This document shows positions 6,876-61,399 of a DNA stretch of 64,000 bases, one piece after another. The notes under the pieces are model-generated. The model did no database searches and was not told where the DNA came from. It saw nothing but the letters and a program-made list of their open reading frames with translations. The stretch is from an uncultured bacterium. GTDB lineage: Bacteria > Zixibacteria > MSB-5A5 > UBA10806. Position numbers and translations under genes: made by a program. Each line of letters opens with the position of its first letter. The stretch's first letter is position 1. Where the stretch lies: NCBI GenBank assembly GCA_965541585.1, contig CBEUCH010000008.1, positions 98,633 to 162,632 on the forward strand, written 5' to 3'.

Positions 6876-7116
6876 AATTTCTACTGTATGAAGATAGAAT
6901 GGTTGGCCGATTCAGAGGAACAAATTTTGACAGCTATGATGTTGTATGGACAGACAATTCTATTTTAGGTGCCGGTGACGAGTCCATCGAGGTTCGTTCT
7001 TCCCTTCGGGCTAAGCTGGTAAACTGATCGAGAGAATAGGTTTTTGTAAGAATGGGAGAGAGCTACTGAGTTTGAATTATTTGATTTTAACCAATTACTT
7101 TAAGAGGAGAAGCCTA

Positions 7117-10100: not shown

Positions 10101-10236
10101 AGTGAACGCCGGCAGCTACACCATCACCTGGAATGGCAGGGACGCTGGCGGCCATGAGGCATCTTCCGGAATCTATTTCTATCGCTTATCCACGGATGAG
10201 GGTGTCAGGCAGGAGAAAATGACTCTGCTGCGGTAG
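7117..10236 (+). CDS. Secreted zinc metallopeptidase (M4/M36-like, FTP/PepSY-like propeptide) with accessory beta domains and FlgD/T9SS-like C-terminal domain
   Basis: GAGGAG RBS and ATG at 7117; propeptide YSQHKDGIPVF and FLVDARTGEIL; NAYY, HHEYGHH, downstream GEGMGD, EIH; tail QNYPNPFNP...SSGIYFY...KMTLLR. Confidence 0.85.
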   Translation: MKRSLLFWFVVCNFMCLFGLAVFGNASNALFEELKADYPGVRAYEEGGRIARIYGRAFGFGSSPVDAALQFKDNYAGLFNVVPDELSPVSILFDGRHTQPVMFDRDTGEYKFTLVYYSQHKDGIPVFRSDLRLLVRNEPGYPLVMAASALRDLTDFDEPIGMMVNPALAESAAKSFSPGLINFSEPRLTIWAGINDMEVEPTVTMEITADNGMEATLDYERWLFLVDARTGEILYSEDLILDVDVTGNVSGMATQGDAADFCGPEEPTPLPYARVYIEGGNTVMADENGDFVIPNDGDTEVTVISNIRGQWFRVFNSSGGNAQLSEAVIPPGPANFLHNAENTSEYNRAEVNGYVESNIVRDFTLTYNPQFPVIWNQNEFRVNVNISDNCNAYYDGYSINFFTAGGGCSNTAFSTVVHHEYGHHLVNVGGSGQGQYGEGMGDVMGVLITDDSHLAWGFFGNCNGFMRNADNNFQYPCSGEIHYCGRLISGCVWSTRNELAITNPDDYIDILSNLAVNSILMHQGNMITPSITLDYLTLDDDDGNIWNGTPHGMEIITGFAYEHNMDPGLSVQIEHTPLIDTEDSNAILGVYADVTSFFSMEEGSVTTYYTFDGDFEEIEMVNTSGDTWYGEIPTPPYETTVSYYIEGIDETGQSATVPENAPDDLYSFYVGTDVIPPTMTLVEGPPNTVDLFGPYGPFVITAWDVHGVNQSEVIMHYRVNDETDSEIALNPTGSEDEFGLDLLDLERQLNSGDIVHYYFTALDEANDPNTGRLPESGTFELLMANAETFEDFEEFGIGRWITEGAWALFNQGHNSSSSMIFGPNYPDNADDMAYMDFGYDLSAYGEARIALYAKYAILDGDICFVLISADGGQTWTTVGSITGVSGSSFEYAEFDISSALSPDDHDYRVGFRFVSDESGHTIGVLLDDIGWAIGPMTGVDDYAVELPIEISLNQNYPNPFNPQTNISFALPHESHVSLDVFDLLGRRVIRLIDEKVNAGSYTITWNGRDAGGHEASSGIYFYRLSTDEGVRQEKMTLLR

Positions 10237-10250
10237 GGGAGTTAGATATG

Positions 10251-10277
10251 AAGGGGCGAACCTCGATTCGCCCCTTT
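10251..10277 (+). terminator. Hairpin, probable terminator or mRNA stabiliser
   Basis: AAGGGGCGAA-CCTCGA-TTCGCCCCTT(T); U tail is short. Confidence 0.6.
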
Positions 10278-10294
10278 GATGAGGTGTTGGCTTA

Positions 10295-40944: not shown

Positions 40945-42429
40945 ATGAGGTTCTTGAAAATAACGGTAATGTTGGCGCTCGTCGCAGCCTATGCCTCGCC
41001 TGCCGGAGCCGATCGGTACTGGTTGAGCAGCGATGACGGTCCGGATATCGAGGTCTGGACGAATAAGGGTTATGACGCCACCTATTATTATGGCGAGGAT
41101 GTAGCCGTTTACTTCCGCGCCGAACGGGATTGCTACGTGGTCGTCTACGATATCGATCCCTCCGGCTGGGTTAACGTGCTCTTCCCGTCGAATTACTACA
41201 ACAGCTGCTATGTGACCGGTGACCGTGTTTATCGTATTCCGGATTATTACAGCGATTACACGCTCGAGGTTTCCAGCAGATCCGGCACAGAGCATATATT
41301 CGCGGTGGCCAGTTACGACTATTTCGAACCGCCTGATTTCATGATGTATTCGGGATATGACTACGGCGAATCCGAATATTATGTCGATGATTACTTCGTC
41401 AAAGATGTATGGGGAGATCTCGATGGATTCGTCAACTCTGTGAATCAGAGGATCGTAAATGGCCCCTATTCGGCGGCTTATACACGTTTTGACGTTGACT
41501 CCGGGTACCGTCACCATAAGAACTATCGTTACTGGGATTATGATCCCTACAGCGTTGGTTCCGTATGGATCGGGAGCAATTACCCGGGCGCCGAGATCTG
41601 GATCGACGGTATTTACTACGGTATCTCGCCGGTGCTTGTCCCCTGGATCTATTACGGTAATCACTGGCTATGGGCTTATTACGGCGGTTATCCCTGCTAC
41701 CAGCAGTATTTCTACGTGTCATCTTACGAGAGATATTACATCGATGTTCGAATCGATGACCGCTATAAGGATTACCGCTACCGCCGGAGATCCTTCAGCG
41801 GCTGGATTCCCCTGGAGAAGAAATACCGCAACGAGAAAGGATTCAAAGAGCGCGCCGGTAAGGCCCGGGCCAAAAAGGTTCGCTCACGAACTCTGCCGTC
41901 GTACGTTGTCCGGGATTTCGAAAAGAGGGGCATAATCTCAAAAGAGGCTCCCATCGTCAAGAGGATCAGGGATGATTCTCGCGCCAGAGACGCCATCCGC
42001 TTTGCAGACAACAGGGAGCGGAGATCCGAGATCGAGCGGAAAGCCGTCAATAAAAAGCGAAAAAAGGCTGATAGAACGTCGTCTGTGAAACGTCCCGAAA
42101 GTCGCGATTCCAGAATCGATAAATCCAGGATGCTCGTTCCTAAAGATGGCAGGCTGCCGGAAAAGTCCGATAGACGAAAAGGGGATTACAAATCAGTTGA
42201 AAAGAGGAGTAAGGACAAGAAGGCGTCCTATTCCAAGCAGAAACGAGATGAAAATCGCAAGCGCAAAAGTTCTGTAACCAATAAGAAGCCGAAATCCGAA
42301 GGTTCCAAGAGTTCGGGAATCAAAAAGGCAGCCGGATCATCGAAAAAGTCTGCGAAAAAGGCGACCGTTAAAGCTAGAAAACCGCAGAGATCATCCGGCA
42401 AGTCTTCCCCTCGAAAGGAGAGAAGGTAA
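40945..42429 (+). CDS. Exported DUF4384-like plus PEGA-like protein with Tyr-rich core and long basic low-complexity tail
   Basis: Signal peptide; IEVWTNKG...YYYGE...DCYV...DPSG.VNVLFP...GTEHIFAVAS; SNYPGAEIWIDG; about 200-aa K/R/S-rich tail. Confidence 0.75.
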   Translation: MRFLKITVMLALVAAYASPAGADRYWLSSDDGPDIEVWTNKGYDATYYYGEDVAVYFRAERDCYVVVYDIDPSGWVNVLFPSNYYNSCYVTGDRVYRIPDYYSDYTLEVSSRSGTEHIFAVASYDYFEPPDFMMYSGYDYGESEYYVDDYFVKDVWGDLDGFVNSVNQRIVNGPYSAAYTRFDVDSGYRHHKNYRYWDYDPYSVGSVWIGSNYPGAEIWIDGIYYGISPVLVPWIYYGNHWLWAYYGGYPCYQQYFYVSSYERYYIDVRIDDRYKDYRYRRRSFSGWIPLEKKYRNEKGFKERAGKARAKKVRSRTLPSYVVRDFEKRGIISKEAPIVKRIRDDSRARDAIRFADNRERRSEIERKAVNKKRKKADRTSSVKRPESRDSRIDKSRMLVPKDGRLPEKSDRRKGDYKSVEKRSKDKKASYSKQKRDENRKRKSSVTNKKPKSEGSKSSGIKKAAGSSKKSAKKATVKARKPQRSSGKSSPRKERR

Positions 42430-42821
42430 TGCTAAAGAGGTTAATAGCGCTTCTGGTTGCCGTTTCCTTCATAATGTCCTCTCCTGCTCTGGCGGTTGAG
42501 AAAGTTCCCAAGAAGCCAAAAAAGCAAACGGCTTCAAGCGGTCAGGCAAGCGACCAGGAGAAAGCGCCGAAGAAGGAAACGAGTCTTAAACAGGAGCCGA
42601 AACCCACCCCGGATAGGAGCAGTCGGCCTGTGCCCGCCCCGGAGAGGCGGAGGTTCAAAGAAAAAGATCGGTTTATCGATGAGGACAGCGACGGCATCAA
42701 CGACCGCTTGAGGAAGCCGCCGACTGTGAAGAAGAAAAAGAAGGAATCCCGACCCAAGAAGGCGGAAATAAAAAGACGTCCCACACCCAAGAAGGCGGAA
42801 ATAAAAAGACGTCCCCGATAA
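42429..42821 (+). CDS. Exported basic low-complexity protein with a DxDxDG motif
   Basis: Signal peptide ending ALA-V; FIDEDSDGINDR; start coupled to the upstream stop (TAATG). Confidence 0.7.
   Translation: MLKRLIALLVAVSFIMSSPALAVEKVPKKPKKQTASSGQASDQEKAPKKETSLKQEPKPTPDRSSRPVPAPERRRFKEKDRFIDEDSDGINDRLRKPPTVKKKKKESRPKKAEIKRRPTPKKAEIKRRPR
42752..42815 (+). repeat. 31-bp exact direct repeat with 33-bp period (in-frame duplication)
   Basis: ACCCAAGAAGGCGGAAATAAAAAGACGTCCC at 42752 and 42785, encoding PKKAEIKRRP twice. Confidence 0.92.
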
Positions 42822-47340: not shown

Positions 47341-47368
47341 TTGACATGCAATCATCATATGCTATCAT
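47341..47368 (+). promoter_or_regulatory. sigma70-type promoter (extended -10)
   Basis: TTGACA-16 nt-TATCAT with TG at the extended -10 position; ATG 7 nt downstream. Confidence 0.65.
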
Positions 47369-47375
47369 ATAAGAT

Positions 47376-50300
47376 ATGCTTCAAAGAGCGGCTCTGGGGC
47401 CAGTTTCGCTGCTGGTATTAGCTTACGTTTCCCTCATAATTTCGATTCCGACGGCTCATGCAGGAGAAGAATCGACGGTCTATAAAGGTATCTTCGTCTC
47501 AGATGAGCCGATTAGCGGTTCGATCAGGATTACCTTCCCCGATGGTGACATTGATCCTGTCTCAGCCTATCTGGAAACTGACACCGACCGGAAAATAGCT
47601 GCTACTTTCGGCCAAACTGGAAATCGAATTTCACTGAAACCCTTCAATCAATCGATCTCGATTTCGCGTGTAGTCCTCCTGCTGCAAAAGATTGCAACTG
47701 ATCCGGATTTATCCGCAGCCATAGTTGAAGCCGGGGGGAAGATAATATCCGGAAGCTGGCGTGATCTCTCGCCATTGTTGCTCGGAAATCTTGCAAATGT
47801 CACGGACAGCCTTTTGCTGGCAACGGTGGCGGCGGCCGATACTCACAAGATCGCCTTCAATACTACGACTGATGCCCTGAGTGATTCGGGGATAATCTGG
47901 GTGACGTTTCCATCCGGATTCGATATCGCGGCAGTAGACAGTGCAGTCTATTCGGATAACGATGCCGGTAACGACGGTAACGAACCTGTCATAAGCTCGA
48001 TTGCCATCGTCGATCAAACCGTCCAATTCCAGCTTAACCTGGGGGCTTTACCGGCTGTTCCGGCATCACGCATATCAGTGGAGTTCAGCCCTGTTACCAA
48101 CGATACGGTGGCCCAGAATTATACGGTCGTGGTGATGACAACGGATTCAACGGGCAATATCGACAACGGTCCGGCAGTCTCCGGGGAATTCTCTCTCCAG
48201 CCGGGACCGCTGGATCACATAATTATAATGCCCGATACCGCACTTACTATTCCTGCAGATTCGGTCATAAATTTCGATGTCAGCGGAAACGATCAATACG
48301 AGAACGAAATAGACACCCTCGTCTTCACATATAATGTCACTGTCGACTCCTGTGGCGATGTTGTCGATGGGGTTTTCATAGCCGATAAGGTGGGGGACTG
48401 TTATTTCACCGCCAGCGCCGATGGCATTACAGACTCCTCCGGTCTGATAACCGTCGTTCCGGGGCCTTTAAGCAGTTTTTCCATCTCCGGAACTCCTTCC
48501 ACCCGGATGGCAGGACAGGTATTTCCATCCATTGTTAATGTCACGGCCTACGATACCAGAGATAATATCAAGACCGACTATCTCGGGGACCTCTGGTTTG
48601 AATCGAGCGATCCCGCCGCAGTCCTATTATATGATTCGGGAAATCCTTATACATTTGTTGTGGAGGATACAGGCAGCGCCGATTTCGCAGGTACCGGTTT
48701 CGAATTGCGCACCGCCGGTAGCCAGACGATTACGGCAACCAACGGCACTATTATGGTAGCCTCCGATCCCATCGACGTAAGCGCCGCGCTGATAGACACC
48801 TTTACGTTCAGTGTCGGCCTGGTTCAGAACGCCGGCGTGGTTTTCGACTTGCAGGTTTTATTCGCCGAAGATCAATTCGGGAATCCCGCTTCTGCTGAAG
48901 TAATTATATCTACTCCTTTTGGCGGCGGCTCCTCTCCCGACGGTATCCCGCCCACCTTGAATAATATCGAAGTCGTCGATGGTTCCGGATCAGCATCGCA
49001 GACTTTGACCAATGCCGTTCCTACCGTGTTGAGAGGATCTGCCGCCGGAGTCGTGGTCGAAACAACAATAGTAGTCCAGCCCGGCTTTCTGGGCAGATTT
49101 GAAATGTCCGGCTATCCGGATACGACGATCGCGGGTGATCTGTTCCCCGATCCGGTAACCGTAGTTGTTTTTGATGTTTTCGGCAATCAGAAAACCAACT
49201 ATGGAGATTGGGTCTATTTCACCAGCTCTGATCCCCTGGCTGTTTTGCCATATACAGTATCGTCAAAGTACCAATTCGTACCGATCGATTCAGGCTCTCA
49301 TTCTTTTGACGGTTCGGGCTTTTCACTCAGAACGGCCGGTGAGCCGATCATCACCATAACAGACGGAGCCGTTTCTGATACATCGGAGACCATTACCGTC
49401 AATCCAGGCCAGATAAACGAGTTCATAATTTTTGCGCCGCTGTCGCCGGTTACGGCCGGCATCCCTTTTCCGGTCGGGGTGTCGGAATGCCGTGATACAT
49501 ACGGAAACCTCACGGATGGCACGGTCAATGTCGCTGATTCGGTAGGCGGTGGCGCATCGCCGGATGGTACGCAGCCGGCCTACAACTCCATACGCGTCGT
49601 ATCGGGTTCCGGCAGCGCCAACCAGACGCTGGTTAACGCTGTCACGACAGTACTCAAGGGGACTGCTGGCAGCGTGGTGGAGGTTACCGACAGTATCACA
49701 GTCGTTTCCGGAACTACAGGTGAATTTGACCTGGATATCTCTTCGCCTCAAATATCGGGTTATTCGTTTACGGGTACGGCGGAAATCACTGCTTTCGATC
49801 AATATGGCAACTTAAAATCGAATTACGATGCTTCCCTTGATACCGTCGTCGTAGAATCCTCGGCGGCCGGTACCATGCAAAACAACATTTTAGATCTCGC
49901 CGGCGATTTTGTCAACGGTGTGGCTGACCTGGCAGCCAGAGGCACGAGATACGACGGGCGCGGGGGAGTTATGACGTTTTCGGCGACATCTGAATCCGGC
50001 GTAGTTGGAATATCCGATCCCGTCGTCATGCGCGCCGTCTTCTGTGATACGCTCATAATCAATGAGGGAATTGTATCCTGGGGGGATACGGCCACCGGAG
50101 TTATTATTGTCAGCAATGATGGCGACGTGGCTGTCGAGATCACCGATCTTGACGTTTTTACCGAGAGCGGATGGTCGCTGGAACCATCGATTATTTCACC
50201 CGGTCTACCGGATTCCATACAGGCAGGTCTGGACGGTACCTATGATATCTCGATCCCCATCCATAGCGGCTTTGCACTGGGGATTCATCCGCTGTCGGCG

Positions 50301-53300
50301 ACTGCACAGGGATTATATGGACTATTCACTGTCACCGATACGCTCAGCGGATTTCCCGATACGCTTGAGATCCAGTCTGCTTCTCAAATCGATTATGTTA
50401 CCGGTTCTATAAGCAGGGATACGTTATCATCCGGCGAATATTATGCATTATCCTTGAAGTTAAGCAACAGTGGAACTGCAGGATTGGGATTAATAGACAG
50501 CTCCTATCTCTATTTTACCGATGGCTCCCTCGATTTCAGGGCCGGGATTTTCAGCGGAGTTTACCTGCCGCCGGATACTCCCGGGGGGACCGACATAATT
50601 CTCGATTCATCGCTTGTCGATCCGAATTTTATTTCAGATATCTATGAAGCAACTTTCCATTATTTCGGTCAGGAAAATGGACATTTCTTAAGCGGCATTA
50701 TCGTTTTGAGTGATTCTATCACCGTCCAGAGCGGCGCGGATATCAGCTATATAACGGGATCGCAGAATATCGATTCGCTCGTCCTGGGGCAAAATGCGTC
50801 GTTCTCCATTCGGGTCAGGAATAACGGTATCGCATCCCTGATACTCGATCATGAAATGACGAAAATAAGATTTACCGATTCTGTTCGGGATTTTGTGGCC
50901 TATTCTGATACATCTTTCCCCGTGGGTATTGATGTTATAATACCGGGCGACACTACTCTTTATTTTGATCCCACGATCTTATCGCCGGAGTTTGCGCTGG
51001 GGCAATACCTGCCGGACGTAACAATCAGGGGTGTACAGAACGGCAATATTGTGACTATGAACTTCGAGACTGAGCCTGACACGATTGACGTATTATCCAG
51101 GGGAACGTTGAGAATTGATACGACATACGTTATGAGTTTAAACGCTCCATTTGTCAACACCGCCCAGGATTGCTCCGTCAGGGTTGCCTTATCCAATCAG
51201 GGCCAAGAGCCGGTGGATTCCTTATATGTTCACCTTTCCAGCGACGGCGCCTCGGTTTTTCCCGAATCGCTTCTTGTGGAGCATATAGGTGGCCTGGAGG
51301 CAAGCGCTATTATGTTTTCTCTAAGCGCAGCAGTAGACCCGGACTCCGGAGAAGTGTTTGCGAGTGCATTATCGGGGGGAAGGGGTAACGTATCGGGCCT
51401 GCCGCCGCTTTTTCTGCCACCGCTGGACAATGCAGCCTTGCTTGTCATCGAGACACCCGCGGAATTAGCGCTGTCCGCAATCGGGGTGGCTGCTCCACCG
51501 GAGGCTATGGATGATACGGTAACTGTCAACCAGCCGGTCAGGATTTCGGCACTGGTGAATAATCTCGGCCAGGCGGACATAACCGGTTCTCAAAGGCTCG
51601 TCCTCGATACGGGCTCCTCCGGTTTCATTGTCACGGATTCGGTCAACAGGGATTATGTTCTCGATCAGGATGTCTTCTGGGATATTACGGCGCCGGGCAA
51701 TCCTTCCGGTTCTGCGATCCTGACGGTGAGGTTCTTGCAAAGAGCGAATGATTCCAATGATGGTTCCGACGCCACAGGTCCGGACTCGGTTTCCACCAGG
51801 GAGTTTGTTATAGATACCAGTCCTTACCTGTTACATCGACCGGTGATAAGCGATCCAGCCGGTGCGCTGGACGGGATAATCTCCACAGACCAGACGTTTA
51901 CTTTAACTGATACAATAGACGTGTTCGGAACTTATGTCAATCTATCGGCAGCCATCATACTACCTCCGGGATTCACGACCGAGGATCCTCTCGTCAAGCA
52001 TCCGATTGGCAATACGGCATCCTGGGATATCAGGGCTCCGGCCGGATCAAGACAGGATTCCGTCGGCGTTTTAAGCTGGCTATACGATGTCAATACGGGC
52101 GATTCGATATCCAGCGGGCCTGATTTTGTCAATACTACGGTTGTCGAGGCTGCCACATTGAACCTCGGATCGCAAATTATCGGGCCCCGGGCGGCTCTCG
52201 ACGGCATAATCGAGCCCGGTGGTCATTTCGAATATGAGGCTCTGGTGGTTAATGGCGGGCAGGCCGACGTTGGAACAGGACGATTATCGTTGCATCTCGG
52301 CAACCCTGATTTGATCCCTGCCGAGGAAACGGAACGCGATTTTGCGCCGGGCATTCCGGTCGTCTGGACCATCACTGTGCCCAACCTTGAGATTTCGAAT
52401 GCGATTCCGGTATGGGTAACGCTGGATTCAATCCCGGATGAGGAAAACACAGGGATTCGGGCTCCGGTTGTAAATGATTCAACATCCGTTCTTGTCACTA
52501 TCAGGGAACTGTTGCCGAGGCTGGAATTAATCCCCGGCGAGCTTCATTCGGGCTCGGTGGTAAAAGGCCAGAAGCTTAATTTTATGTCATTTGCCCTGAG
52601 CAATAACGACCGCGGCGGATCATTTCTTATCGGCGTGACTCAGATGACATTCAGGTTGGACTCGAATCTGCCTTCCAATTCTACTGGCTCGCCCGTGGTA
52701 TTAACCGGGGCAACTATTTTCGTCGATTCGACGGAGTATGAAAGCAGTGAAATTACGGCCGACGAAATCAGGTTCGAGTTCTCGGATACGCTTGATATAG
52801 CCCCCGGCGAGAACGCCGAGCTTGATCTGTGGTTGAATATATCATTAAACTCGGAAGTCAGGGATTTCGTAATTGGGCTCGATAGCCGGGATATAGAAGG
52901 TGTCGTCCTGGATGGAGGAGTCCCCACGGCCGAATTGACCGCTGTCTCCCGACAGGGTGTCCCATTACTCTGGAACAGCGATCCTACGGCTGTTCTGGCG
53001 CGATCATTTGCCGGTTCGGTCTCCAGCTATCCGAATCCCTTCAATCCGAAAAACAACGCGGCAAAAATAGGATACTATCTTGCCGCCGATTCGGATCTGG
53101 AAGTGAAGATTTTCACCCTCCTGGGCGAGTTAGTCTGGTCGAAGGAAATTCAAGCCACGGCTTCCCTTGGACGCGCCGGACTGCATACCGGCCAGACGGC
53201 CCTGCAATGGAGCGGCAAAAACGATTCTGGTTCCGATATCAGATCTGGCGTATATATCTGCGTCATCAAAAACAGGTCCACAGGCGAGGAGGAGCGATTC

Positions 53301-53321
53301 AAAATTGCTGTCGTAAAGTAG
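47376..53321 (+). CDS. Very large (1981 aa) secreted Ig-like repeat protein, putative adhesin or surface protein, with FlgD/T9SS-like C-terminal domain
   Basis: Signal peptide ending AHA-G; acidic, D/S/T/V-rich beta repeats with D.[YF]GN motifs; tail YPNPFNP...IFTLLGELV...WSGKND.G...SGVY...KIAVVK. Confidence 0.85.
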   Translation: MLQRAALGPVSLLVLAYVSLIISIPTAHAGEESTVYKGIFVSDEPISGSIRITFPDGDIDPVSAYLETDTDRKIAATFGQTGNRISLKPFNQSISISRVVLLLQKIATDPDLSAAIVEAGGKIISGSWRDLSPLLLGNLANVTDSLLLATVAAADTHKIAFNTTTDALSDSGIIWVTFPSGFDIAAVDSAVYSDNDAGNDGNEPVISSIAIVDQTVQFQLNLGALPAVPASRISVEFSPVTNDTVAQNYTVVVMTTDSTGNIDNGPAVSGEFSLQPGPLDHIIIMPDTALTIPADSVINFDVSGNDQYENEIDTLVFTYNVTVDSCGDVVDGVFIADKVGDCYFTASADGITDSSGLITVVPGPLSSFSISGTPSTRMAGQVFPSIVNVTAYDTRDNIKTDYLGDLWFESSDPAAVLLYDSGNPYTFVVEDTGSADFAGTGFELRTAGSQTITATNGTIMVASDPIDVSAALIDTFTFSVGLVQNAGVVFDLQVLFAEDQFGNPASAEVIISTPFGGGSSPDGIPPTLNNIEVVDGSGSASQTLTNAVPTVLRGSAAGVVVETTIVVQPGFLGRFEMSGYPDTTIAGDLFPDPVTVVVFDVFGNQKTNYGDWVYFTSSDPLAVLPYTVSSKYQFVPIDSGSHSFDGSGFSLRTAGEPIITITDGAVSDTSETITVNPGQINEFIIFAPLSPVTAGIPFPVGVSECRDTYGNLTDGTVNVADSVGGGASPDGTQPAYNSIRVVSGSGSANQTLVNAVTTVLKGTAGSVVEVTDSITVVSGTTGEFDLDISSPQISGYSFTGTAEITAFDQYGNLKSNYDASLDTVVVESSAAGTMQNNILDLAGDFVNGVADLAARGTRYDGRGGVMTFSATSESGVVGISDPVVMRAVFCDTLIINEGIVSWGDTATGVIIVSNDGDVAVEITDLDVFTESGWSLEPSIISPGLPDSIQAGLDGTYDISIPIHSGFALGIHPLSATAQGLYGLFTVTDTLSGFPDTLEIQSASQIDYVTGSISRDTLSSGEYYALSLKLSNSGTAGLGLIDSSYLYFTDGSLDFRAGIFSGVYLPPDTPGGTDIILDSSLVDPNFISDIYEATFHYFGQENGHFLSGIIVLSDSITVQSGADISYITGSQNIDSLVLGQNASFSIRVRNNGIASLILDHEMTKIRFTDSVRDFVAYSDTSFPVGIDVIIPGDTTLYFDPTILSPEFALGQYLPDVTIRGVQNGNIVTMNFETEPDTIDVLSRGTLRIDTTYVMSLNAPFVNTAQDCSVRVALSNQGQEPVDSLYVHLSSDGASVFPESLLVEHIGGLEASAIMFSLSAAVDPDSGEVFASALSGGRGNVSGLPPLFLPPLDNAALLVIETPAELALSAIGVAAPPEAMDDTVTVNQPVRISALVNNLGQADITGSQRLVLDTGSSGFIVTDSVNRDYVLDQDVFWDITAPGNPSGSAILTVRFLQRANDSNDGSDATGPDSVSTREFVIDTSPYLLHRPVISDPAGALDGIISTDQTFTLTDTIDVFGTYVNLSAAIILPPGFTTEDPLVKHPIGNTASWDIRAPAGSRQDSVGVLSWLYDVNTGDSISSGPDFVNTTVVEAATLNLGSQIIGPRAALDGIIEPGGHFEYEALVVNGGQADVGTGRLSLHLGNPDLIPAEETERDFAPGIPVVWTITVPNLEISNAIPVWVTLDSIPDEENTGIRAPVVNDSTSVLVTIRELLPRLELIPGELHSGSVVKGQKLNFMSFALSNNDRGGSFLIGVTQMTFRLDSNLPSNSTGSPVVLTGATIFVDSTEYESSEITADEIRFEFSDTLDIAPGENAELDLWLNISLNSEVRDFVIGLDSRDIEGVVLDGGVPTAELTAVSRQGVPLLWNSDPTAVLARSFAGSVSSYPNPFNPKNNAAKIGYYLAADSDLEVKIFTLLGELVWSKEIQATASLGRAGLHTGQTALQWSGKNDSGSDIRSGVYICVIKNRSTGEEERFKIAVVK

Positions 53322-55153
53322 TACTGAGCGCAGCCGTTCTCCTGTTATCCTGGAGTTCGATAGCATTCTCTGAAGGCGACGCCGGCCGGGAATCGCTTTT
53401 TTCGCTGGGTGCGGGAGCGCGGGGGATGGGTATGGGACGAGCTTTCGTTTCGCTCTCGGGTGATGCCTCGGCTCCCTTCTGGAACCCCGGCGCTACGGCC
53501 TCCATAGATAAAACTGAGGTCATGGCATTTCACACTTCCCTTTTTCTGGGAACCAACTACGAATGTCTCGGGCTATCTCATCCTCTGGGGGAAATCGGAG
53601 TTTTTTCGCTATCGGTCGGCAGGGTTGCCACAGACGGTATTGAACGCAGGGACGAATTCAATCGACTTATCGATGAGTTTTCATCGTCCGAATCACAATA
53701 TGGATTGAGTTTCGCACGTGATATCCGTTTCGGCCTATCCGGGGGACTGACGCTGAAAGCTGTCATGGTTGATATCGGTAATGTCAGCGGATCCGGATTC
53801 GGCGCCGATCTGGGATTTCAATACCGACCTTCCTTCGTCAAAGGGGTGACAGTAGGTGCGGCATTCAACGACTTGATAAAGCCTGCCGTAAAACTGGTAT
53901 CGGTCAAAGATGAGTATCAGACAGTCAGCAGATTTGGAATATCCTCGCAGAACAGGCCATTCAAGGATGCCAGTTCCACGGTTTCCCTTGACCTCGAGAA
54001 AACAAAGGGCAGGAGCGTCAGGATACGTGCCGGGCTGGAGGCGGCCTTCTACCGGCAATTCTCGCTTCGCCTGGGATATGATGACGGACGGCCCACTTTC
54101 GGGGCGGGATTATTGTATAACCTTGTCAGGCTGGACTATGCCTATGAGGATGTTGAACATCTCGGCGGCAGCCATAGAGTATCGGTTGCTTTTGCCTTCG
54201 GGAAGTCCGTGGCGCAGGCCAGTGAGGAGAACAAGGCACGGATAATCCATGAAGAAAAGGAGAGATGGGAAGAATCGCTCGAATCGGAACGAAAGAACAA
54301 ATCCAATACCTATATGGACATGGCAGACAGCTTAAAGGACCACGGCCAATACCATGAAGCCCTGGATTATTATCAGAGGGCGTCGGCTCTTGATTCCGGT
54401 TTTGTCGAGGCTCGGGCCGGGGCGGATAGTATGATGGCCCGCATCGTCGGTCGGGCGGTGGCGGACGCCGGTGACAGGAAAAGAAAAGATCTGATCGCCG
54501 GTAGGATTGAATCCGCCCTCACCGCTTTCCGTCAAGGGCGTTTGAATGAAGCCATATCGAATTATGATCTGCTTCTGGAGATAGATCCGGAAAACGAGAC
54601 CCTCATCGATCTGCTCAAAACCGCCAGGGAGACCCGTCGGGAAGAAATCGAGGACAGCAGGAATACTGCCAGAACTTACCAGGAAGCGGGCGATTATGTC
54701 AATGCCATAGCGGCCTGGGATCGGTTGCTGGCGCTCGACCGGACGGATACGGAGGCAGCCGATTCGATCGATGTCCTCAGGAAAGAACTGGAGGTAGGCA
54801 ATCTGGTAACCGCAGCCCTGGCTGCCATTGAGGAAGGCAGGTACGCCCGCGCGGTAAGCCATCTGAGAAAGGCAGCGGAATTGAAACCGCAGGATAAGAC
54901 TATTGCATCGCTGCTGAAAAATGCTCGAGCTAAATCTGCTCCACTCACCACGCTTGAAGATATAAAGTCATCTCCCGATCACTGGAGGATTTATCTCTCC
55001 GGTCTCGAAAGCTATCAGGCCAACGAATACGAAAAGGCGCTGAATTCCTGGCGTAGCCTGCGAGAATCTTATCCGAACAATCCGGAGTTGGAAAAGAATA
55101 TAAGCCAGGCCGAACAGAGGCTGGCTGCTGAAGGCGATTCCTCCCCAGAATAG
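53207..55153 (+). CDS. PorV/PorQ-like outer-membrane barrel fused to a C-terminal TPR region
   Basis: LGAGARGMGMGRAF...DASAPFWNPG N-terminal signature; GFGADLG; RLDYAY...LGGSHRVS; then coiled coil and TPRs. Start uncertain. Confidence 0.82.
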   Translation: MERQKRFWFRYQIWRIYLRHQKQVHRRGGAIQNCCRKVVLSAAVLLLSWSSIAFSEGDAGRESLFSLGAGARGMGMGRAFVSLSGDASAPFWNPGATASIDKTEVMAFHTSLFLGTNYECLGLSHPLGEIGVFSLSVGRVATDGIERRDEFNRLIDEFSSSESQYGLSFARDIRFGLSGGLTLKAVMVDIGNVSGSGFGADLGFQYRPSFVKGVTVGAAFNDLIKPAVKLVSVKDEYQTVSRFGISSQNRPFKDASSTVSLDLEKTKGRSVRIRAGLEAAFYRQFSLRLGYDDGRPTFGAGLLYNLVRLDYAYEDVEHLGGSHRVSVAFAFGKSVAQASEENKARIIHEEKERWEESLESERKNKSNTYMDMADSLKDHGQYHEALDYYQRASALDSGFVEARAGADSMMARIVGRAVADAGDRKRKDLIAGRIESALTAFRQGRLNEAISNYDLLLEIDPENETLIDLLKTARETRREEIEDSRNTARTYQEAGDYVNAIAAWDRLLALDRTDTEAADSIDVLRKELEVGNLVTAALAAIEEGRYARAVSHLRKAAELKPQDKTIASLLKNARAKSAPLTTLEDIKSSPDHWRIYLSGLESYQANEYEKALNSWRSLRESYPNNPELEKNISQAEQRLAAEGDSSPE

Positions 55154-55155
55154 AC

Positions 55156-55184
55156 TTTACTTAGTTCGGAATCCGCCTTAAAAT
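55156..55184 (+). promoter_or_regulatory. Possible sigma70-type promoter of the signalling/EPS operon
   Basis: TTTACT-17 nt-TAAAAT. Confidence 0.45.
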
Positions 55185-55211: not shown

Positions 55212-58109
55212 ATGGCGAAAAAGCCACAAAAAGAGATCTTTATGAGCTTTCCCGCTGAGGAGGGACAGCTCGAGGATATCCGCAAAAGCATCCAGAATGT
55301 ATTATCCGAGTCGGATCTCTCTACCAAGGATATAAACAGCGTACTTCTGGGTATCGAGGAAGCCTGCACTAACGTAATCCGGCATGCTTATCTTTATGGC
55401 CCTGGCACGCTCAGGATCAAGGTAGCGTTCCATCCGGGGCGCGTGGTTTTCTCTATTTTCGATAAGGGTCGCCGGTTCGATTATGACCATTCGGAGACCC
55501 CGGATCTCGATCGCTACATAAAAACCGGCCGAAAAGGCGGGCTGGGACTCTATCTGATTCGCAAAATGATGGACACGGTGGAGTATTATTCCCGCGAAGG
55601 CGAAAACGAGCTCCGGATGGAGAAACTAGCTGATAAGGCTACGGCCAGAACCGTCCGGCCCCGCGGGGTTTCTATCAGGGTCAAATTCGCTCTCTGGGCT
55701 TCTCTGGTGGTATTCGCCATCGTGGCCAGCGTATTTCTATATCTCGACAATAGGGTAGCTGATGGCGCTTATGCGGCCTTTTTCCGAGGCGCTTCGGACG
55801 TTATGAATTCGTTTGTATCGGATACCGGCGATAAAATAGTCTCAAGAGACCTCGACCTTTCTAAGTCAGCCTCCAGATGGCTCTCGGCCAATACTGATCA
55901 GTTTTCATATATTCTTGTGACCGATACCTCGGATATTATTATTGCAGATCCCGGGAACCCCAAGAATTTTCTAACGGAATATACTGCACTGACAGGTTCA
56001 TATTATAACAACGATCTTGCAGTTGAGGACTCCATCGGACAACGGAATTTTCATTACAAAATGGCCGTCAGGCTCAACAATAGTATAGTCGGATACGTCT
56101 ATTTCGGCCTGAAGGAAGCCCCGTTGAGAGCGGAGGTTTCGCATGCCAGAAGAGGGCTTTTTCTCATAGCCATCGCGGGACTTGTTGCCGGATTTATCGC
56201 TGTGTTTATGCTCTCTAACTACTTTGTGAAACCGATACAGAAACTCACGGAGGGTGTCCTGCGCATAGGGGACGGCAATCTGGATCGCTCCCTGCCCGTT
56301 GAAGGCACCGACGAATTCTCGGAGATCGCAAGGGCTTTTAACGAAATCACTTTGAAATTCAAAAAAGCCCAGGAGAACGTGGTTGAGCAGGAACGGCTCC
56401 AGAAAGAGATGCAGGTTGCCCAGGAAATTCAACATGCGCTTCTGCCCCGGAGGTTTCCCGAGATCGAGGGATATGATATTGCCACGATCTACCGGGCAGC
56501 GAAAGATGTCGGCGGCGATTATTTCGATTTTGTTCAGATCGACGAGGATACGCTGGGGATTATAGTGGCCGACGTTTCCGGAAAAGGGGTGCCCGGTTCG
56601 CTGGTTATGACCATGATCCGGACCGCCCTCCGCCTCGAGGCCAGGGGAAACCTTTCTCCCGCAGACATCCTCGGCAACGTCAATCACTTCGTTACAGATG
56701 ATGTCAAAAAGGGAATGTTTATCACCATATTTCTCATTACTCTTAACTCCAAGAATAGAACTATCTCATATGTTTCCGCCGGGCACAACCCGATGATCCT
56801 GTATAGAAAAGATTCCGATGCTTGCTATTTCCTGAATACAAGAGGCATGCCCCTGGGAATCAGCTTGCCGGAGGGGGTTACTTTCGAGAAATCGCTTCAG
56901 GCCGATAGGGTGAAACTTAAAAAGGATGATATGCTGATTATCTATACCGATGGCATCACCGAGGCTATGAATAAGCCGGGCGCTCAATATGGAAACGACC
57001 GACTGATCGAATTTATTAAGAAGAACACCGAACTTTCCCCCGAGGAGTTCGCTAAGAAACTCGATGATGATATAAACAGATTTACCGCCGGCGCCCCTCA
57101 AAATGATGATATCACCCTGGTAGTCGTTAAAGAAAAGATTATGCTTGATGAGCTGGTATTTGAAAAGAGGAAGCGACTTATCGAGATGGTCGAGCATGAA
57201 GGAGTTCCTTTGGATGAAGCCTGCAAGCAGATGGACGTATCGACGTCCACTTTTTATAAATATCGCCGCCGCTGGCAGAAACTGGGCGACGCCGGATTGC
57301 TCAACAAGAAGCTTCGAGCCGAATCGGTGATGAGGCAGATCCCTTATGAGGTCCGCAAAGAAATCTTAAATATCGTTCGCGAGAATCCCGGGTACGGTGC
57401 CAAGCGCATTATGAGCGAACTCGCCGGAAGGGATTTCCGGGAGATCGAATATCGAGGGATCTACGAAGAGTTGGTTCGAATGCGACTCAATACTAAGAAA
57501 CTAAGACTTGAGTATGTAAGCAGAGTGGGGAGCCTCACCCCGGAACTGCGTGCGGAACTGGATAAGGAAATTCTCCGTGAGAGGAAGAAAAAGAGTGAAT
57601 TCGATCGCGAGGGCTATGTTGAAGATATAAAGAAAAGCATCGTGGAGAAGGATGTTGAGGCCAAACAACCCGCTGCTGATATCCTGCGAAAATTACAGGA
57701 TCTGGAACCTGCACTGGGAGACACCGGCCTCTACGGAGAGATAGCCGCCGAACTCGGCAAACTAAGCGGCGGGAAAGACATCGCCATGCTTTTTGAGAAG
57801 ATGATACTCAGGATGGCCCAGATAAGAAAAGCCGAGGCTGACAGAAAATCGCAAGATCCTCTCATTTCTAAGCCCGGGCGCGTTGAGGTTCCTGGGGACG
57901 ATCCGAATATTGATATGACCGTAGATTCAATAGAAAAGAAGCTGGAGGCCCCTGCGGACGATCTTGACTTTCCCACTATCGATGATAATACGGCTCCAAT
58001 TGATGTGGTGGATGCCGCTTCCCATATCGAAAACGACGATGCAAAAAAGGAAAATATCGATTGGGAAAAATATGGCAAAAAACTTTATGAGAAATTCAAC
58101 AAGAAATGA
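55212..58109 (+). CDS. Fusion protein: RsbW-like Ser/Thr kinase, TM-periplasmic sensor-TM, HAMP, SpoIIE/PP2C phosphatase, tandem HTH, acidic tail
   Basis: EEACTNVIRHAY, FDKGRRFD, GGLGLYLIRKMMD; HAMP KPIQKL...DEFSEIARAFN; VGGDYFD, ADVSGKG, SAGHNP, YTDGITEA, DDITL; EACKQMDVSTSTFYKYRRRW. Confidence 0.9.
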   Translation: MAKKPQKEIFMSFPAEEGQLEDIRKSIQNVLSESDLSTKDINSVLLGIEEACTNVIRHAYLYGPGTLRIKVAFHPGRVVFSIFDKGRRFDYDHSETPDLDRYIKTGRKGGLGLYLIRKMMDTVEYYSREGENELRMEKLADKATARTVRPRGVSIRVKFALWASLVVFAIVASVFLYLDNRVADGAYAAFFRGASDVMNSFVSDTGDKIVSRDLDLSKSASRWLSANTDQFSYILVTDTSDIIIADPGNPKNFLTEYTALTGSYYNNDLAVEDSIGQRNFHYKMAVRLNNSIVGYVYFGLKEAPLRAEVSHARRGLFLIAIAGLVAGFIAVFMLSNYFVKPIQKLTEGVLRIGDGNLDRSLPVEGTDEFSEIARAFNEITLKFKKAQENVVEQERLQKEMQVAQEIQHALLPRRFPEIEGYDIATIYRAAKDVGGDYFDFVQIDEDTLGIIVADVSGKGVPGSLVMTMIRTALRLEARGNLSPADILGNVNHFVTDDVKKGMFITIFLITLNSKNRTISYVSAGHNPMILYRKDSDACYFLNTRGMPLGISLPEGVTFEKSLQADRVKLKKDDMLIIYTDGITEAMNKPGAQYGNDRLIEFIKKNTELSPEEFAKKLDDDINRFTAGAPQNDDITLVVVKEKIMLDELVFEKRKRLIEMVEHEGVPLDEACKQMDVSTSTFYKYRRRWQKLGDAGLLNKKLRAESVMRQIPYEVRKEILNIVRENPGYGAKRIMSELAGRDFREIEYRGIYEELVRMRLNTKKLRLEYVSRVGSLTPELRAELDKEILRERKKKSEFDREGYVEDIKKSIVEKDVEAKQPAADILRKLQDLEPALGDTGLYGEIAAELGKLSGGKDIAMLFEKMILRMAQIRKAEADRKSQDPLISKPGRVEVPGDDPNIDMTVDSIEKKLEAPADDLDFPTIDDNTAPIDVVDAASHIENDDAKKENIDWEKYGKKLYEKFNKK

Positions 58110-58864
58110 TTAAGCTGGCAGTGCTGACATCAAAGGGCGGGACGGGAAAGACGACAACCGCCATAAACCTCGGACATGGCCTGGCGCTCTCGGGACATAG
58201 GGTTCTCATTGTCGATTGTGATCCGCAGGGATCGGCCACATCGGCGTTCGGAGTCAAATCCGAGAAAGGTCTCGTCGACCTCCTGATCGAGGGTCGGGCG
58301 GATATATACAAAATAAGGCCCGAGCTGTATCTTCTGCCATCCGGGAAGAAGCGGCTTGCAGACCTCGAGATAATGATGGCCTCCCGGGCCGACCGCTATC
58401 AGATATTAAAAAATGCCCTTCATCGTCTCTCAGGATGCGATTGGGTAATTCTGGACTGCTCTCCCTCGATAAATATTATTAATCTCAACGCACTAGGATT
58501 TGCCGACTACCTGCTGGTTCCTTCTTCTCTGGATTATTTCTCGCTGGAGGGGGTCAGGACAACCCTTGAGATAACGGGCGAGGTGAACAACGGGGGAAAT
58601 GGCAATATTGAGATTCTCGGCATTCTGCCGACATTTTATGATAGAAGGACGGTTATATCGCGGCTGGCTCTGGAGAGTCTCCGCAGCGAATATGGAAGTC
58701 TGATTTTAAAAACGGAAATCAGGACCAACGCCCAGATTCGGAGGTCGCAATGGTATCAGAAGACTATATTCGAATATGCCCCCTATTCTTATGGGGCTTT
58801 CGACTATTTCAATCTGGCCAAGGAGGTCCTGGAGAGAGTGCGAGGTCAAAAGCGACATGAATGA
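58106..58864 (+). CDS. ParA/Soj family ATPase (orphan)
   Basis: Deviant Walker A KGGTGKTT, DCDPQG, ILDCSPS, PTFYDRRT; no parB nearby. Confidence 0.9.
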   Translation: MIKLAVLTSKGGTGKTTTAINLGHGLALSGHRVLIVDCDPQGSATSAFGVKSEKGLVDLLIEGRADIYKIRPELYLLPSGKKRLADLEIMMASRADRYQILKNALHRLSGCDWVILDCSPSINIINLNALGFADYLLVPSSLDYFSLEGVRTTLEITGEVNNGGNGNIEILGILPTFYDRRTVISRLALESLRSEYGSLILKTEIRTNAQIRRSQWYQKTIFEYAPYSYGAFDYFNLAKEVLERVRGQKRHE

Positions 58865-59588
58865 TATCAAAATATCCCTGGATAGTTCGGGAATTGCATC
58901 GGCAGTTTCGGTGGTTCGAGTTGACGGTGTTGTGGATACCATGACGGCCACTGAATTGGAAAAAGTTATGAATTCGTTGCTGGATCGTGGAAAATACAAA
59001 ATTATAATCGATCTCGGTGGCGTCGATTACATATCATCGGCCGGCTGGGGTATATTCATTTCCAACATTCGCGAGATAAGACAGCATTCCGGCGATATCA
59101 AGTTGGCCAGAATGATTCCCAACGTGTATGAAATATTCGAGCTTCTGGAATTCGATTCCATCCTTCGTGCTTTCGATAGCATCGAAAAGGCCAGGGGCGA
59201 TTTCGAGGAAGACAGATACGATACAGCTGCTGTCGGCTCCCCGACGCCGGTTGAGGTCGGAGTCGCCGCAAAGCAGAGCATTACGGGTGAACCACCTCCC
59301 GGACCAGCTGTCGATTCGGCCTCAGAGAAAATAGTGGTTGGTGAACCCGGAGATCAAGAGAAGGTGGAAGGGATCGAGAGCGCGCCACGGAACGTGGAAA
59401 CCATGGTCCTGGAGATGATAGCAAAAGACCCCTTTTATACGGTTTCGGAGATTAAAAGAGAGGTGGAAAGGAAGTATCAGCGGTCTGGGGTGGGATGGTG
59501 GAAGATCTGGAATATATTGAGACGAAACGGCCTCCTCAGCAAGAAAAGCCGCTATCGCAGAGCTCGGAATAGGGCCAGGGATCTGTAA
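58857..59588 (+). CDS. STAS anti-anti-sigma (RsbV-like) domain with C-terminal HTH
   Basis: GAGGT RBS and ATG at 58857; DLGGVDYISSAGWG phospho-Ser motif; Pro/Ala-rich linker; DPFYTVSEIK...VGWWKIWNILRRNGL. Confidence 0.88.
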   Translation: MNDIKISLDSSGIASAVSVVRVDGVVDTMTATELEKVMNSLLDRGKYKIIIDLGGVDYISSAGWGIFISNIREIRQHSGDIKLARMIPNVYEIFELLEFDSILRAFDSIEKARGDFEEDRYDTAAVGSPTPVEVGVAAKQSITGEPPPGPAVDSASEKIVVGEPGDQEKVEGIESAPRNVETMVLEMIAKDPFYTVSEIKREVERKYQRSGVGWWKIWNILRRNGLLSKKSRYRRARNRARDL

Positions 59589-59590
59589 TA

Positions 59591-61399
59591 ATGATTAAGC
59601 CTCCTCCGGCGCGGCCATACGTTTTAGCGCTGATGATACTGGGAGCTTTATTTATCGCAGTATTTTTTATCTCGGATTCAGAATGGACGACTATAGGTAT
59701 CGGAGGCATCATCCTGATAGCCTCGACTATCGTTGGCCTTGCTTATTTGAGATCCATCCGCAATGCCCGTCTCATTTCCAGCCTGTATGAATCCGAGAGC
59801 TCCCGCGAAAAATCAATCGCCATCGGAATTCTTGCTGAAATCCTGGCAGAAAGTCCGGCCACAGGGTCCCGGTTGGCCAGGGTGGCCGAGTTGATCTGCG
59901 GCAGGTTCGGGCTCGGGAAATTGGCCATATTCTTCCAGGATGGCGATAAATTCAAGCCGAAGATTTATTTCAATATACCCGCGGCCATATTAAACCGTCC
60001 CAGGACTTACCGACTGCATTACCTGTTCAAAGAAATCAATGCTGCCGGTGAGCTATCCGCCGAGGATAGCATCCGGAGATTGTTGCTTAAGAAAAACAAC
60101 CAGGAGATTCTGGAACCATTGGTTACGTTCCGCTATAGGTGGGGACGCTCACGCTCAATGATTCTTATCGCCGAGGATGAAAAGGGCTTTTTTGCCGACG
60201 CTTTGAATGACCAGGAATTCAATAGATTGTTCTGGCCGGTGCTGGACAATCACGTCAGGCAAGGTGCAAGACTGACGGATAACATTTCGGATACGAAGCG
60301 GATGAGAAACGATCTTTCACAGGCCAAACGGGAGATACTGGATCTCAATAAGGAACTCAACAAAAAGCTTTTCGACCTGCAATCTTACGTGAAGATTTCC
60401 AGCGATCTATATTCTCATTTCAACGAGGAACAACTGTTCGAGTCCTTAATAAAGGCCGTCTGTGTCCAGGTCGGAGCGAGGGGAGCGGATGTCATGCATC
60501 CCACGGACAATGGCAAATTTGTTACCCGGTCTGCCGAGGGATTGCCGGATCTGGTTCTGGATTCCAGTTCCAAGCTTCTCGCATTGCTTGAGAAGAGCGG
60601 CAAGCCGCTTCTGTTGCCAGTTGTAGGTTCCGGAATGAGAAGAAACGAGCCTTTCCTGAGGGCCGCCATCGGACGGGGCTACGAGGTAGCCATGGCTATC
60701 AGAGCTGAAAATAGAACCGGTTGCGTATTGATTGTCCGCGAAAAAATCGATAAGGGCCAGTATTCAGATTCGAATCTGGATTTCTTATCCATCGTATCAA
60801 ACATAGCTTCTCTGGCGCTCGAAAACATACGTCAATACTCTACTATCGAAAAGCTATCTTATACCGACAGCATGACCGGGGTTTTCAACTACAGGTATTT
60901 TTATAAGCGCCTGAATGAGGAGATACTCAGGGCTAAAAGGTACGGCCGCGATCTTGCCCTGGTAATCCTGGATATAGATAATTTTAAGCTTTTTAACGAT
61001 AACTATGGACATCAGACCGGCGATTTTGTATTAAAGCGTCTGGCGGAGATAATCTCCAGGACGGTACGGTCTATCGATATCGTCAGCAGATACGGGGGGG
61101 AGGAGTTTTGCATTATAATGCCTGACACTAACGCCGCCAGTTGCGAGGTTTTCATAGAGAGGCTGAGATCTGAAATTGCGCAATTTAAATTGGAATCGGA
61201 TATTCTGAAAAGGGATAATGTCATCACTGTTTCGGTGGGAGGTGCTGTTTACCCGCAGCACGCCTCCACGCCGGATAGAATCATCTACTGTGCGGATATG
61301 GCCCTTTTGAAGGCCAAGGCGCTGGGACGAAACCGGGCGATTATGTGCCAGCCCGAATTTATAGATAAAAAAGAATCCTCCATCGGGGGTCATGAATGA
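59591..61399 (+). CDS. Membrane-anchored GAF-GGDEF diguanylate cyclase
   Basis: Two N-terminal TM, coiled coil, GAF-like region; DSMTG, DIDNFK..ND.YGH, I-site RSID, GGEEF. Confidence 0.93.
   Translation: MIKPPPARPYVLALMILGALFIAVFFISDSEWTTIGIGGIILIASTIVGLAYLRSIRNARLISSLYESESSREKSIAIGILAEILAESPATGSRLARVAELICGRFGLGKLAIFFQDGDKFKPKIYFNIPAAILNRPRTYRLHYLFKEINAAGELSAEDSIRRLLLKKNNQEILEPLVTFRYRWGRSRSMILIAEDEKGFFADALNDQEFNRLFWPVLDNHVRQGARLTDNISDTKRMRNDLSQAKREILDLNKELNKKLFDLQSYVKISSDLYSHFNEEQLFESLIKAVCVQVGARGADVMHPTDNGKFVTRSAEGLPDLVLDSSSKLLALLEKSGKPLLLPVVGSGMRRNEPFLRAAIGRGYEVAMAIRAENRTGCVLIVREKIDKGQYSDSNLDFLSIVSNIASLALENIRQYSTIEKLSYTDSMTGVFNYRYFYKRLNEEILRAKRYGRDLALVILDIDNFKLFNDNYGHQTGDFVLKRLAEIISRTVRSIDIVSRYGGEEFCIIMPDTNAASCEVFIERLRSEIAQFKLESDILKRDNVITVSVGGAVYPQHASTPDRIIYCADMALLKAKALGRNRAIMCQPEFIDKKESSIGGHE

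Follow-up and report, generated by a model that had tools for sequence, protein, structure and literature searches.

An IS481-type helix-turn-helix pair carried by a membrane kinase-phosphatase of Zixibacteria

The stretch of DNA studied here, 64,000 nucleotides of contig CBEUCH010000008.1 (assembly GCA_965541585.1) from an uncultured bacterium of the Zixibacteria and called the window below, encodes a membrane sensor in which a kinase and a phosphatase are followed by a pair of helix-turn-helix (HTH) domains. We found that this pair, the module, is real, old and selected. Judged by its profile matches, it is in kind the DNA-binding arm of an IS481 transposase and not a transposase. Our preferred reading, which we hold tentatively and at somewhat less than even confidence, is that the module would serve as an accessory cap that sits on the phosphatase and binds DNA with low specificity, in a partner switch with a STAS protein that has its own HTH (STAS-HTH) as output.

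The HTH module of the sensor

The sensor comprises, in this order, a kinase, a first transmembrane segment (TM1), a periplasmic Cache-like region, a second segment (TM2), HAMP, SpoIIE/PP2C, HTH1 and HTH2, a helical region, a variable tail and a C-terminal helix. Pfam placed the RsbW-type kinase (HATPase_c_2) at residues 13–138, HAMP at 334–378 and SpoIIE/PP2C at 445–640, and hydropathy placed TM1 at about 159–178 and TM2 at about 315–338. Since there are two membrane segments and a HAMP domain, the kinase, the phosphatase and the HTH pair would all lie on the cytoplasmic side of the membrane.

55212..58109, + strand: sensor gene, membrane kinase-phosphatase, 965 amino acids
56397..57137, + strand: PP2C domain and the helix that leads into it; residues specific to the family, on that helix, alpha1/alpha2 and the junction, are relaxed in orthologs lacking the module
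57144..57299, + strand: HTH1, residues 645–696, an IS481-type three-helix domain
57300..57344, + strand: linker, residues 697–711, without the IS481 Arg/Pro pattern
57345..57536, + strand: HTH2, residues 712–775, with a fourth helix; homologous to the C-terminal HTH of the STAS protein

The folded module consists of residues 645–775 (57144–57536), directly after SpoIIE/PP2C and in frame with it, and ends about 190 residues upstream of the sensor stop. An earlier reading of the sequence (the original prediction) had placed a transposase-like peptide at 57162–57510, in frame after SpoIIE/PP2C in 55212–58109; this corresponds to residues 651–766 and was correctly located, the folded module being slightly longer.

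Pfam HTH matches spanned residues 652–751, and HTH_23 (expect value, E, 7e-8), HTH_29 (1.3e-6) and HTH_28 (4.7e-6) were all above their curated cut-offs; of the families named in the original prediction, HTH_28 and HTH_29 were thus recovered and HTH_32 (E 5e-6) fell under its cut-off. The best NCBIfam match of the module was the IS481 transposase NF033577 (profile positions 1–111 of 284, E 3.9e-18), followed by weaker matches to IS3 (6e-8) and IS630 (2.9e-6). The label ‘IS481/IS630-type’ therefore holds in its first half, and an IS630 origin was rejected because that match is far weaker. The whole protein scored 60.5–66 bits against the IS481 profile, whose cut-off is 224. As had been noted before, there was neither a DDE/integrase core nor a terminal inverted repeat: the rest of the IS481 profile was unmatched and no rve family match followed the module in the Pfam and NCBIfam scans, and none of the 14 short inverted pairs in 56900–59700 flanked it. 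The GC content is level across the module, which is single-copy in the genome; no intact IS481 was present elsewhere in the genome, the sole other IS481 match being a fragment below the cut-off.

When the module was folded alone with AlphaFold, it gave two confident HTH domains (predicted local distance difference test, pLDDT, 89) in a loose relative position (predicted TM-score, pTM, 0.52). Its best fold neighbours came from the DNA-binding parts of transposases and from paired domains (TnsB, Pax5/6, MuA, Tc3 and IstA), all of them weak, the TnsB match (8aa5) having an E of 0.033, a Z of 6.7 and a root-mean-square deviation of 10.2 over 117 residues. A sequence search of solved structures likewise returned weak matches only (best E 0.015; TnsB 0.053), and the ESM Atlas gave generic HTH_23/28/29/32 clusters only.

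The sensor module and IS481 have in common a conserved Cys and the motifs Ser-x-x-Thr-x-Tyr, Gly-x-x-Gly-Leu and Pro-x-x-Gly. In a quick, unrooted tree of the full module (134 columns, limited sampling) the sensors stood on their own side (support 98), apart from 27 of 28 transposases. These unrooted trees suggest that the module may have come from a transposase and not from a shared HTH ancestor.

In some sensors the module is followed by a further, weak match, HTH2-like or to part of the module (L052:5978-8650, + strand; P0142, P0168, P0169), which suggests a tendency of the module to duplicate.

Selection, distribution and loss

Among 285 Zixibacteria genomes, 99 matched the module, and 60 of these were counted as orthologs with the module in frame (57 at E <1e-23 and three at about 1e-11 in frames of 897–898 amino acids). 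The remaining matches were weak and lay mostly in frames of 130–420 amino acids; the ten that were scanned all had IS481 as their best match, eight of them over the cut-off. In a set of 80 loci from the genome collection, 37 had the module after the phosphatase (two of them HTH2 only), and the other 43 encoded ordinary PP2C proteins without an HTH. The labels among the 37 include Calditrichota, KSB1, Latescibacterota, Krumholzibacteria, Eisenbacteria, FCPU426, Omnitrophota and Spirochaetes.

Within the module, the ratios of nonsynonymous to synonymous substitution (dN/dS) were 0.068 (HTH1) and 0.052 (HTH2); elsewhere in the sensor they were 0.050 (kinase), 0.024 (PP2C) and 0.198 (tail). All were pooled over 13 partly overlapping genome pairs with dS near 1 and are approximate. 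By these ratios the module is under strong purifying selection in its orthologs, with both halves at 0.05–0.07. It has the marks of domestication, namely purifying selection, a fixed locus, a single copy and no mobility features, and it stands in frame across many lineages, as expected from the proposal that it is domesticated.

Families f9 and f18 have the same cluster with a sensor of 630–695 amino acids that stops shortly after the phosphatase. All 16 sampled short sensors lack the module, the tail and an adjacent parA. An ortholog of the short sensor was found in 121 of 285 genomes (all 122 matches in frames of at most 735 amino acids), and the catalytic motifs are retained in both the module-bearing and the short sensors. 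A PP2C tree was rooted with 11 outgroup proteins; in it, all short forms but one (15 of 16) made up a single clade on a long stem (0.79) inside the module-bearing Zixibacteria (support 97), and the sixteenth (f15) was unplaced. Since the short forms are nested in the module-bearing clade, the module appears to be ancestral and to have been lost there, with no recent insertion. On this tree the module is dispensable, having been lost in one large clade. The original prediction had taken orthologs without the region as the sign of a recent insertion-sequence scar; such orthologs do exist in number, and their position in the tree speaks for loss and not for a scar.

A possible role in a partner switch

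The sensor holds an RsbW-type kinase and a SpoIIE-type PP2C in one chain, with the catalytic motifs of both intact, and the locus includes an adjacent STAS protein with a candidate phospho-serine motif, as in partner switches of the SypE/HsbR kind. The STAS protein scored over the TIGR00377 cut-off, and its YISSAG-type motif is conserved.

58857..59588, + strand: STAS protein, 243 amino acids, with the candidate phospho-serine motif YISSAG and a C-terminal homolog of HTH2
59376..59573, + strand: C-terminal HTH of the STAS protein (dN/dS 0.063)

The HTH of the STAS protein aligned with HTH2 of the sensor with an hhalign probability of 98.4% (E 4e-15, 64 columns), and a BLASTP comparison of the window's module with its STAS protein was not significant (E 0.46), so that the homology is visible by profiles only. 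Approximately unbiased tests over 66 columns rejected neither a ‘sensor + STAS’ origin (p 0.61) nor a ‘STAS + transposase’ origin (p 0.84) of the STAS HTH; in a quick tree from which four long-branch transposases were left out, the transposases were separated from the rest (support 89) and the STAS HTHs, in all cases but one (22 of 23), were grouped. The STAS HTH may thus have arisen either as a duplicate of the sensor's HTH2 or through a capture of its own. STAS-HTH proteins occur in 229 of the 285 Zixibacteria genomes, as well as in 17 loci outside the Zixibacteria, and they are retained where the sensor module has been lost. Since STAS-HTH is kept more widely than the sensor module, it would be the likelier DNA-binding output, by analogy with CapK/CapS.

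CapS is described as a STAS–winged HTH repressor whose DNA binding ends upon phosphorylation by the HTH-bearing anti-sigma-type kinase CapK (PMC13373217). Likened by these descriptions, both systems pair an HTH-bearing anti-sigma-type kinase with an adjacent STAS protein that ends in an HTH. By the same account, CapK differs from the sensor in being an HTH-STAS-GHKL protein activated by single-stranded DNA, with no phosphatase in the domain list given there and with immune operon neighbours, and the HTH of CapS is winged, unlike the IS481-type HTHs of the sensor system (PMC13373217). The sensor, unlike CapK, has two transmembrane segments with a Cache-like region and HAMP, combines the kinase with PP2C, and lies beside genes for a surface protein and polysaccharide export. 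SypE of Vibrio fischeri resembles the sensor in having an N-terminal serine kinase and a C-terminal phosphatase in one chain, and this two-activity enzyme acts on the STAS protein SypA in a polysaccharide locus (PMC3610818).

The module appears to be tied to the phosphatase in more than sequence order. The junction between PP2C and the module is 27–29 residues long, a near-fixed length, in the 64 sensors, out of 78, that were matched by pattern. When PP2C and the module were folded together, the pTM was 0.81 over 381 residues, compared with 0.52 for the module alone; a floating module would give about 0.65 by a rough estimate, and thus, read from the pTM alone, the module is probably placed against the enzyme and packs on it. 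Among PP2C residues conserved in at least 85% of the module-bearing sensors, 18 of the 43 family-specific ones were lost in the short forms, compared with 5 of the 62 general ones. Of the 18, nine belong to the leading helix and alpha1/alpha2 and three to the junction (K640-E641-K642). The leading helix with alpha1 and alpha2 is described, in two papers on SpoIIE-type phosphatases, as the activity switch and the docking place of regulatory domains (PMC5468089, PMC11418112).

We compared 61 sensor modules with 24 IS481 modules residue by residue; the denominators vary by column. Residues kept in the sensors as in IS481 were S677, T680, Y682, K/R683, G692, P726, G729, K/R732 and K/R756, so that the recognition helix of HTH1 retains S677, T680, Y682 and the basic stretch 683–687. 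On the HTH helices conservation extends across lineages for S677 (57/61), Y682 (54/61), K/R683 (57/61), K/R732 (56/61) and R765 (59/60), and the conserved residues of HTH2 are P726, G729, R732, E753, R756, R758, N760, T761, K762, R765 and R771. The recognition-helix Arg of IS481 was found in none of the 61 sensors, compared with 23 of 24 IS481 modules and 74 of 79 modules of a glycosyltransferase (GT2) family; the window's sensor has T678 at that site, and the replacing residue varies among sensors (P in 37%, T in 29%). The linker Arg was present in 1/61 sensors versus 19/24 IS481 modules, and the linker Pro in 0/55 versus 12/23. Basic residues were commoner in the sensors than in IS481 at positions 685 (55/61 vs 10/24), 686 (53/61 vs 9/24), 758 (47/61 vs 1/19) and 762 (51/61 vs 3/15), and a basic residue at 771 is also newly fixed. 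The mean net charge of the module was +6.1 in sensors and +7.6 in IS481. The absence of the IS481 Arg fits a changed or reduced specificity, and the module surface may still be kept for a polyanion, no longer for a transposon end.

On the preferred reading of the module as an accessory DNA-binding cap, a periplasmic signal would pass through HAMP and shift the balance of kinase and phosphatase on the STAS serine, as in partner-switching families, and the phosphorylation state of STAS-HTH would set its own DNA binding, by analogy with CapS, which would be the real output. STAS-HTH would act on the giant surface protein encoded upstream and, in Zixibacteria, also on cyclic di-GMP and polysaccharide export. 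The HTH pair of the sensor would pack against the phosphatase and likely bind chromosomal DNA with little sequence preference, holding the enzyme at the nucleoid and tuning it; as an accessory it would either bring the enzyme to its DNA-bound substrate or couple DNA contact to phosphatase activity. Such an accessory role would explain why the module was lost in one large clade with the rest kept.

We looked for a target site in the giant-gene promoters of module-bearing Zixibacteria, extracting 35 regions, of which six were dropped as not being giant-gene promoters; 29 had a clear box and 22 were non-redundant. Two promoter-like sites in the window are relevant here.

47341..47368, + strand: sigma70-type promoter-like site TTGACA-16-TATCAT before the giant gene; same place in relatives
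55156..55184, + strand: internal promoter-like site TTTACT-17-TAAAAT, upstream of the sensor; position shared within family f1

Several results weigh against the preferred reading. No shared operator or target site was found in the 22 promoters, the palindrome score being 6.55 compared with a shuffled mean of 6.50 (range 6.23–6.73). The fold matches of the module are below significance. E753 is fixed in the recognition helix of HTH2 (56/61 sensors, 0/22 IS481 modules), the HTH1 and linkers of KSB1/Calditrichota-type members, which are less basic, are neutral or acidic, and a module packed on the phosphatase could have its recognition surface buried. The relaxed PP2C residues, moreover, come almost all from one long-branch loss event in which the tail and parA were lost too, and thus are not independent evidence.

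Some of the same results would fit a module that no longer binds DNA and has become a protein-contact cap, which regulates the phosphatase switch or recruits STAS-HTH through contact between the two HTH2 domains. We regard this as doubtful, though deserving serious attention. The rise in pTM, the relaxed PP2C residues, the missing IS481 Arg and linker Arg/Pro, the fixed E753, the acidic linkers of KSB1-type members and the homology between HTH2 and the STAS HTH all agree with it, whereas the conservation and new fixation of basic residues and the positive net charge do not. Some module-bearing sensors (L050, L052) adjoin a plain STAS protein of 120 amino acids without an HTH; since STAS-HTH is also kept without the sensor module, docking between the HTH2 domains is not obligatory.

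It is rather unlikely that the sensor itself is a sequence-specific, membrane-anchored transcription regulator that binds an operator alone or with STAS-HTH. ToxR and CadC are the comparison families for the logic of such a regulator. The bipartite fold is one of sequence-specific binders, S, T, Y and K of the recognition helix are conserved, promoter-like sites precede both the giant gene and the sensor, and the change of Arg to Thr or Pro could mean a new specificity and not a loss. The residue replacing the Arg varies, however, a large clade keeps the operon with no module in it, and neither a palindrome nor a shared word rose above shuffled sequences, the top 6-, 7- and 8-mers of the 22 giant-gene promoters being within the shuffled maxima. 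The suggestion in the original prediction that the module makes the enzyme a transcription regulator is thus weakened, by the missing Arg as well as by the missing operator.

We also considered the adjacent ParA-like ATPase as a partner of the module.

58106..58864, + strand: Soj/ParA-like ATPase, 252 amino acids, overlapping the sensor gene by ATGA; 1wcv is its best solved match (E 5e-44)
58062..58106, + strand: C-terminal helix of the sensor, residues 951–965, aromatic-acidic-basic; co-occurs with an adjacent parA

The ATGA overlap of sensor and parA that had been reported is real (58106–58109), and module and parA are both missing from the short-sensor loci, as would be expected if the module were a ParB-like partner that positions the complex on the nucleoid. 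This is nevertheless very improbable, since 32 of 78 module-bearing loci (a few at a contig edge) have no adjacent parA, among them three Zixibacteria f4 loci and all those of Calditrichota, KSB1 and Eisenbacteria. The presence of parA follows the C-terminal helix, which was seen by eye in 44 of 46 parA loci, three of them duplicates, and in none of 32 loci without parA; the co-occurrence is found in Zixibacteria and Latescibacterota-type loci. Judged by this co-occurrence, ParA goes with the last helix of the sensor and not with the HTH, and the helix is a candidate ParA docking peptide. The HTH was therefore rejected as the partner of ParA.

The IS481 similarity of the module and the many orthologs without it might suggest an IS481 remnant, recent or without function, that is translated by in-frame read-through. 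This is extremely improbable in view of a dN/dS like that of the kinase and far below that of the tail (0.20), the same in-frame position in many phyla, its own side of the tree (98), its single copy and the lack of repeats and of an intact IS481 in the genome; a recent scar is rejected by selection and distribution, unless the cross-phylum loci are misassembled.

Related proteins, neighbouring genes and minor observations

A profile search of 1.84 billion representatives was made with the module, and its best 150 matches were analyzed. PP2C was present in 78 of them and two copies of the module in 58; the remaining 14, for the most part fragments resembling sensors, had one copy and no PP2C. 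DDE-core profiles found no DDE core among the 150. When 44 of the two-copy proteins were scanned, 37 had a GT2 domain and the other seven were short; one was labelled Patescibacteria. The median bits per domain were 59 for the two-copy proteins, 50 for transposases and 141 for sensors, the rank of the two-copy proteins being inflated because two domains are summed. Membrane GT2 proteins of the Patescibacteria type, up to 2949 amino acids long, have two tandem N-terminal copies of the module without DDE (P0145-P0255). Like the sensor, these synthases are membrane enzymes whose cytoplasmic end carries HTH1 and HTH2 but no DDE; they differ from it in their two N-terminal copies, their retained IS481 Arg (74/79), their charge of +11.9 and their grouping with transposases. 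Since the sensors stand apart from both GT2 proteins and transposases in the unrooted tree (98), the sensor and GT2 modules suggest two separate domestications. IS481 transposases share with the sensor the tandem HTH pair and the match to profile positions 1–111; the sensor differs in lacking a DDE core, terminal repeats, multiple copies and the recognition-helix Arg and linker Arg/Pro, in its new basic residues and fixed Glu, and in its fused, co-inherited membrane phosphatase.

The best Foldseek match of PP2C was 3ke6 (E 4.5e-16), followed by 3f79, 6k4e and 5mqh, and the NCBIfam SiaA profile matched the sensor at E 1e-22, under its cut-off. SiaA of P. aeruginosa, Rv1364c of M. tuberculosis and SpoIIE/RsbU thus share the PP2C fold with the sensor, and the solved matches listed cover about 230–310 PP2C columns and none of the HTH pair. 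A published description of the sensor family, its HTH, slippage in its STAS gene or the two-copy GT2 synthases was not found among the top-ranked literature matches; the CapK/CapS datasets could list relatives.

The core cluster found across phyla consists of a giant secreted protein, a UPF0164-like/TPR protein, the sensor and the STAS protein.

47376..53321, + strand: giant secreted protein, 1981 amino acids, with a weak FlgD-Ig-like C-terminal match (E 0.014); core cluster
53207..55153, + strand: protein with a UPF0164-like N-terminal domain and TPRs; core cluster
59591..61399, + strand: GAF-GGDEF protein, followed by wza- and wzz-like genes; linked in Zixibacteria-type loci only

There were 13 sigma70-r2 matches in the genome, none of them over the SigBFG cut-off and none on the contig. 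Where a STAS switch has no linked sigma factor, its STAS protein may bind DNA as the output, as shown for CapS; here this would be under reversible control from the membrane.

In 15 of 20 STAS genes from lineages in which no module-bearing sensor was found (L256-L275), an A9-10G run lies between STAS and its HTH (e.g. L267:12027-12446, L257:11457-11849 and L260:11938-12612, all + strand). The HTH is in frame in six of these genes and in the −1 frame in nine, with the same linker motif in the shifted frame, and the run is likely a site of programmed slippage or frameshifting that would give STAS with and without its HTH. A run of at least eight A occurred in only 1 of 65 STAS genes beside module-bearing sensors, near the 3' end, and the gene in the window has none.

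Taken jointly, these observations could be read as an IS481 module, tamed early in several uncultured phyla, that became an allosteric DNA clamp switching a membrane phosphatase, with a half-module on the STAS substrate making a transcription factor for the giant surface protein and slime, A9-10 slippage yielding the substrate with and without its HTH in the clamp-less clade, and a separate taming on polysaccharide synthases of Patescibacteria; as a whole this is speculative and more probably wrong than right by a wide measure. If true, the separate taming on synthases would hint at a recurring way of linking synthesis at the cell surface to the nucleoid. Eukaryotes are well known to have domesticated the DNA-binding domains of transposases; a bacterial example, fixed on a membrane signalling enzyme of many phyla and present again on the substrate of that enzyme, would broaden this theme. 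For comparison there are natural variants that have or lack the module, that have or lack ParA, in which STAS is fused, or that have a slippery STAS-HTH junction, and the parts of the system are small soluble domains.

Several further variants were seen among the loci. In forms of about 1400 amino acids, STAS domains are fused after the HTH pair (L033, L035, L036, L076; P0081-P0094), and the separate STAS genes beside them are short and without an HTH. KSB1/Calditrichota-type sensors end in a long acidic region with TPRs, not in the ParA-linked helix (L023, L026-L028, L034, L044, L054; P0096-P0111). STAS-HTH occurs without a sensor gene in the fetched stretch in L263, L270, L272 and L273, in three of the four directly before GGDEF-wza-wzz. 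The C-terminal domains of several secreted proteins, including those at 47376-53321 and 7072-12313 of the window, are of the FlgD-Ig or Por_Secre_tail kind, which points to a type IX-like sorting signal in this Zixibacteria genome. Finally, a small Lys/Arg-rich open reading frame at 42429-42820 has a signal-peptide-like start and, by eye, a near-perfect 33-base repeat at about 42757-42820.

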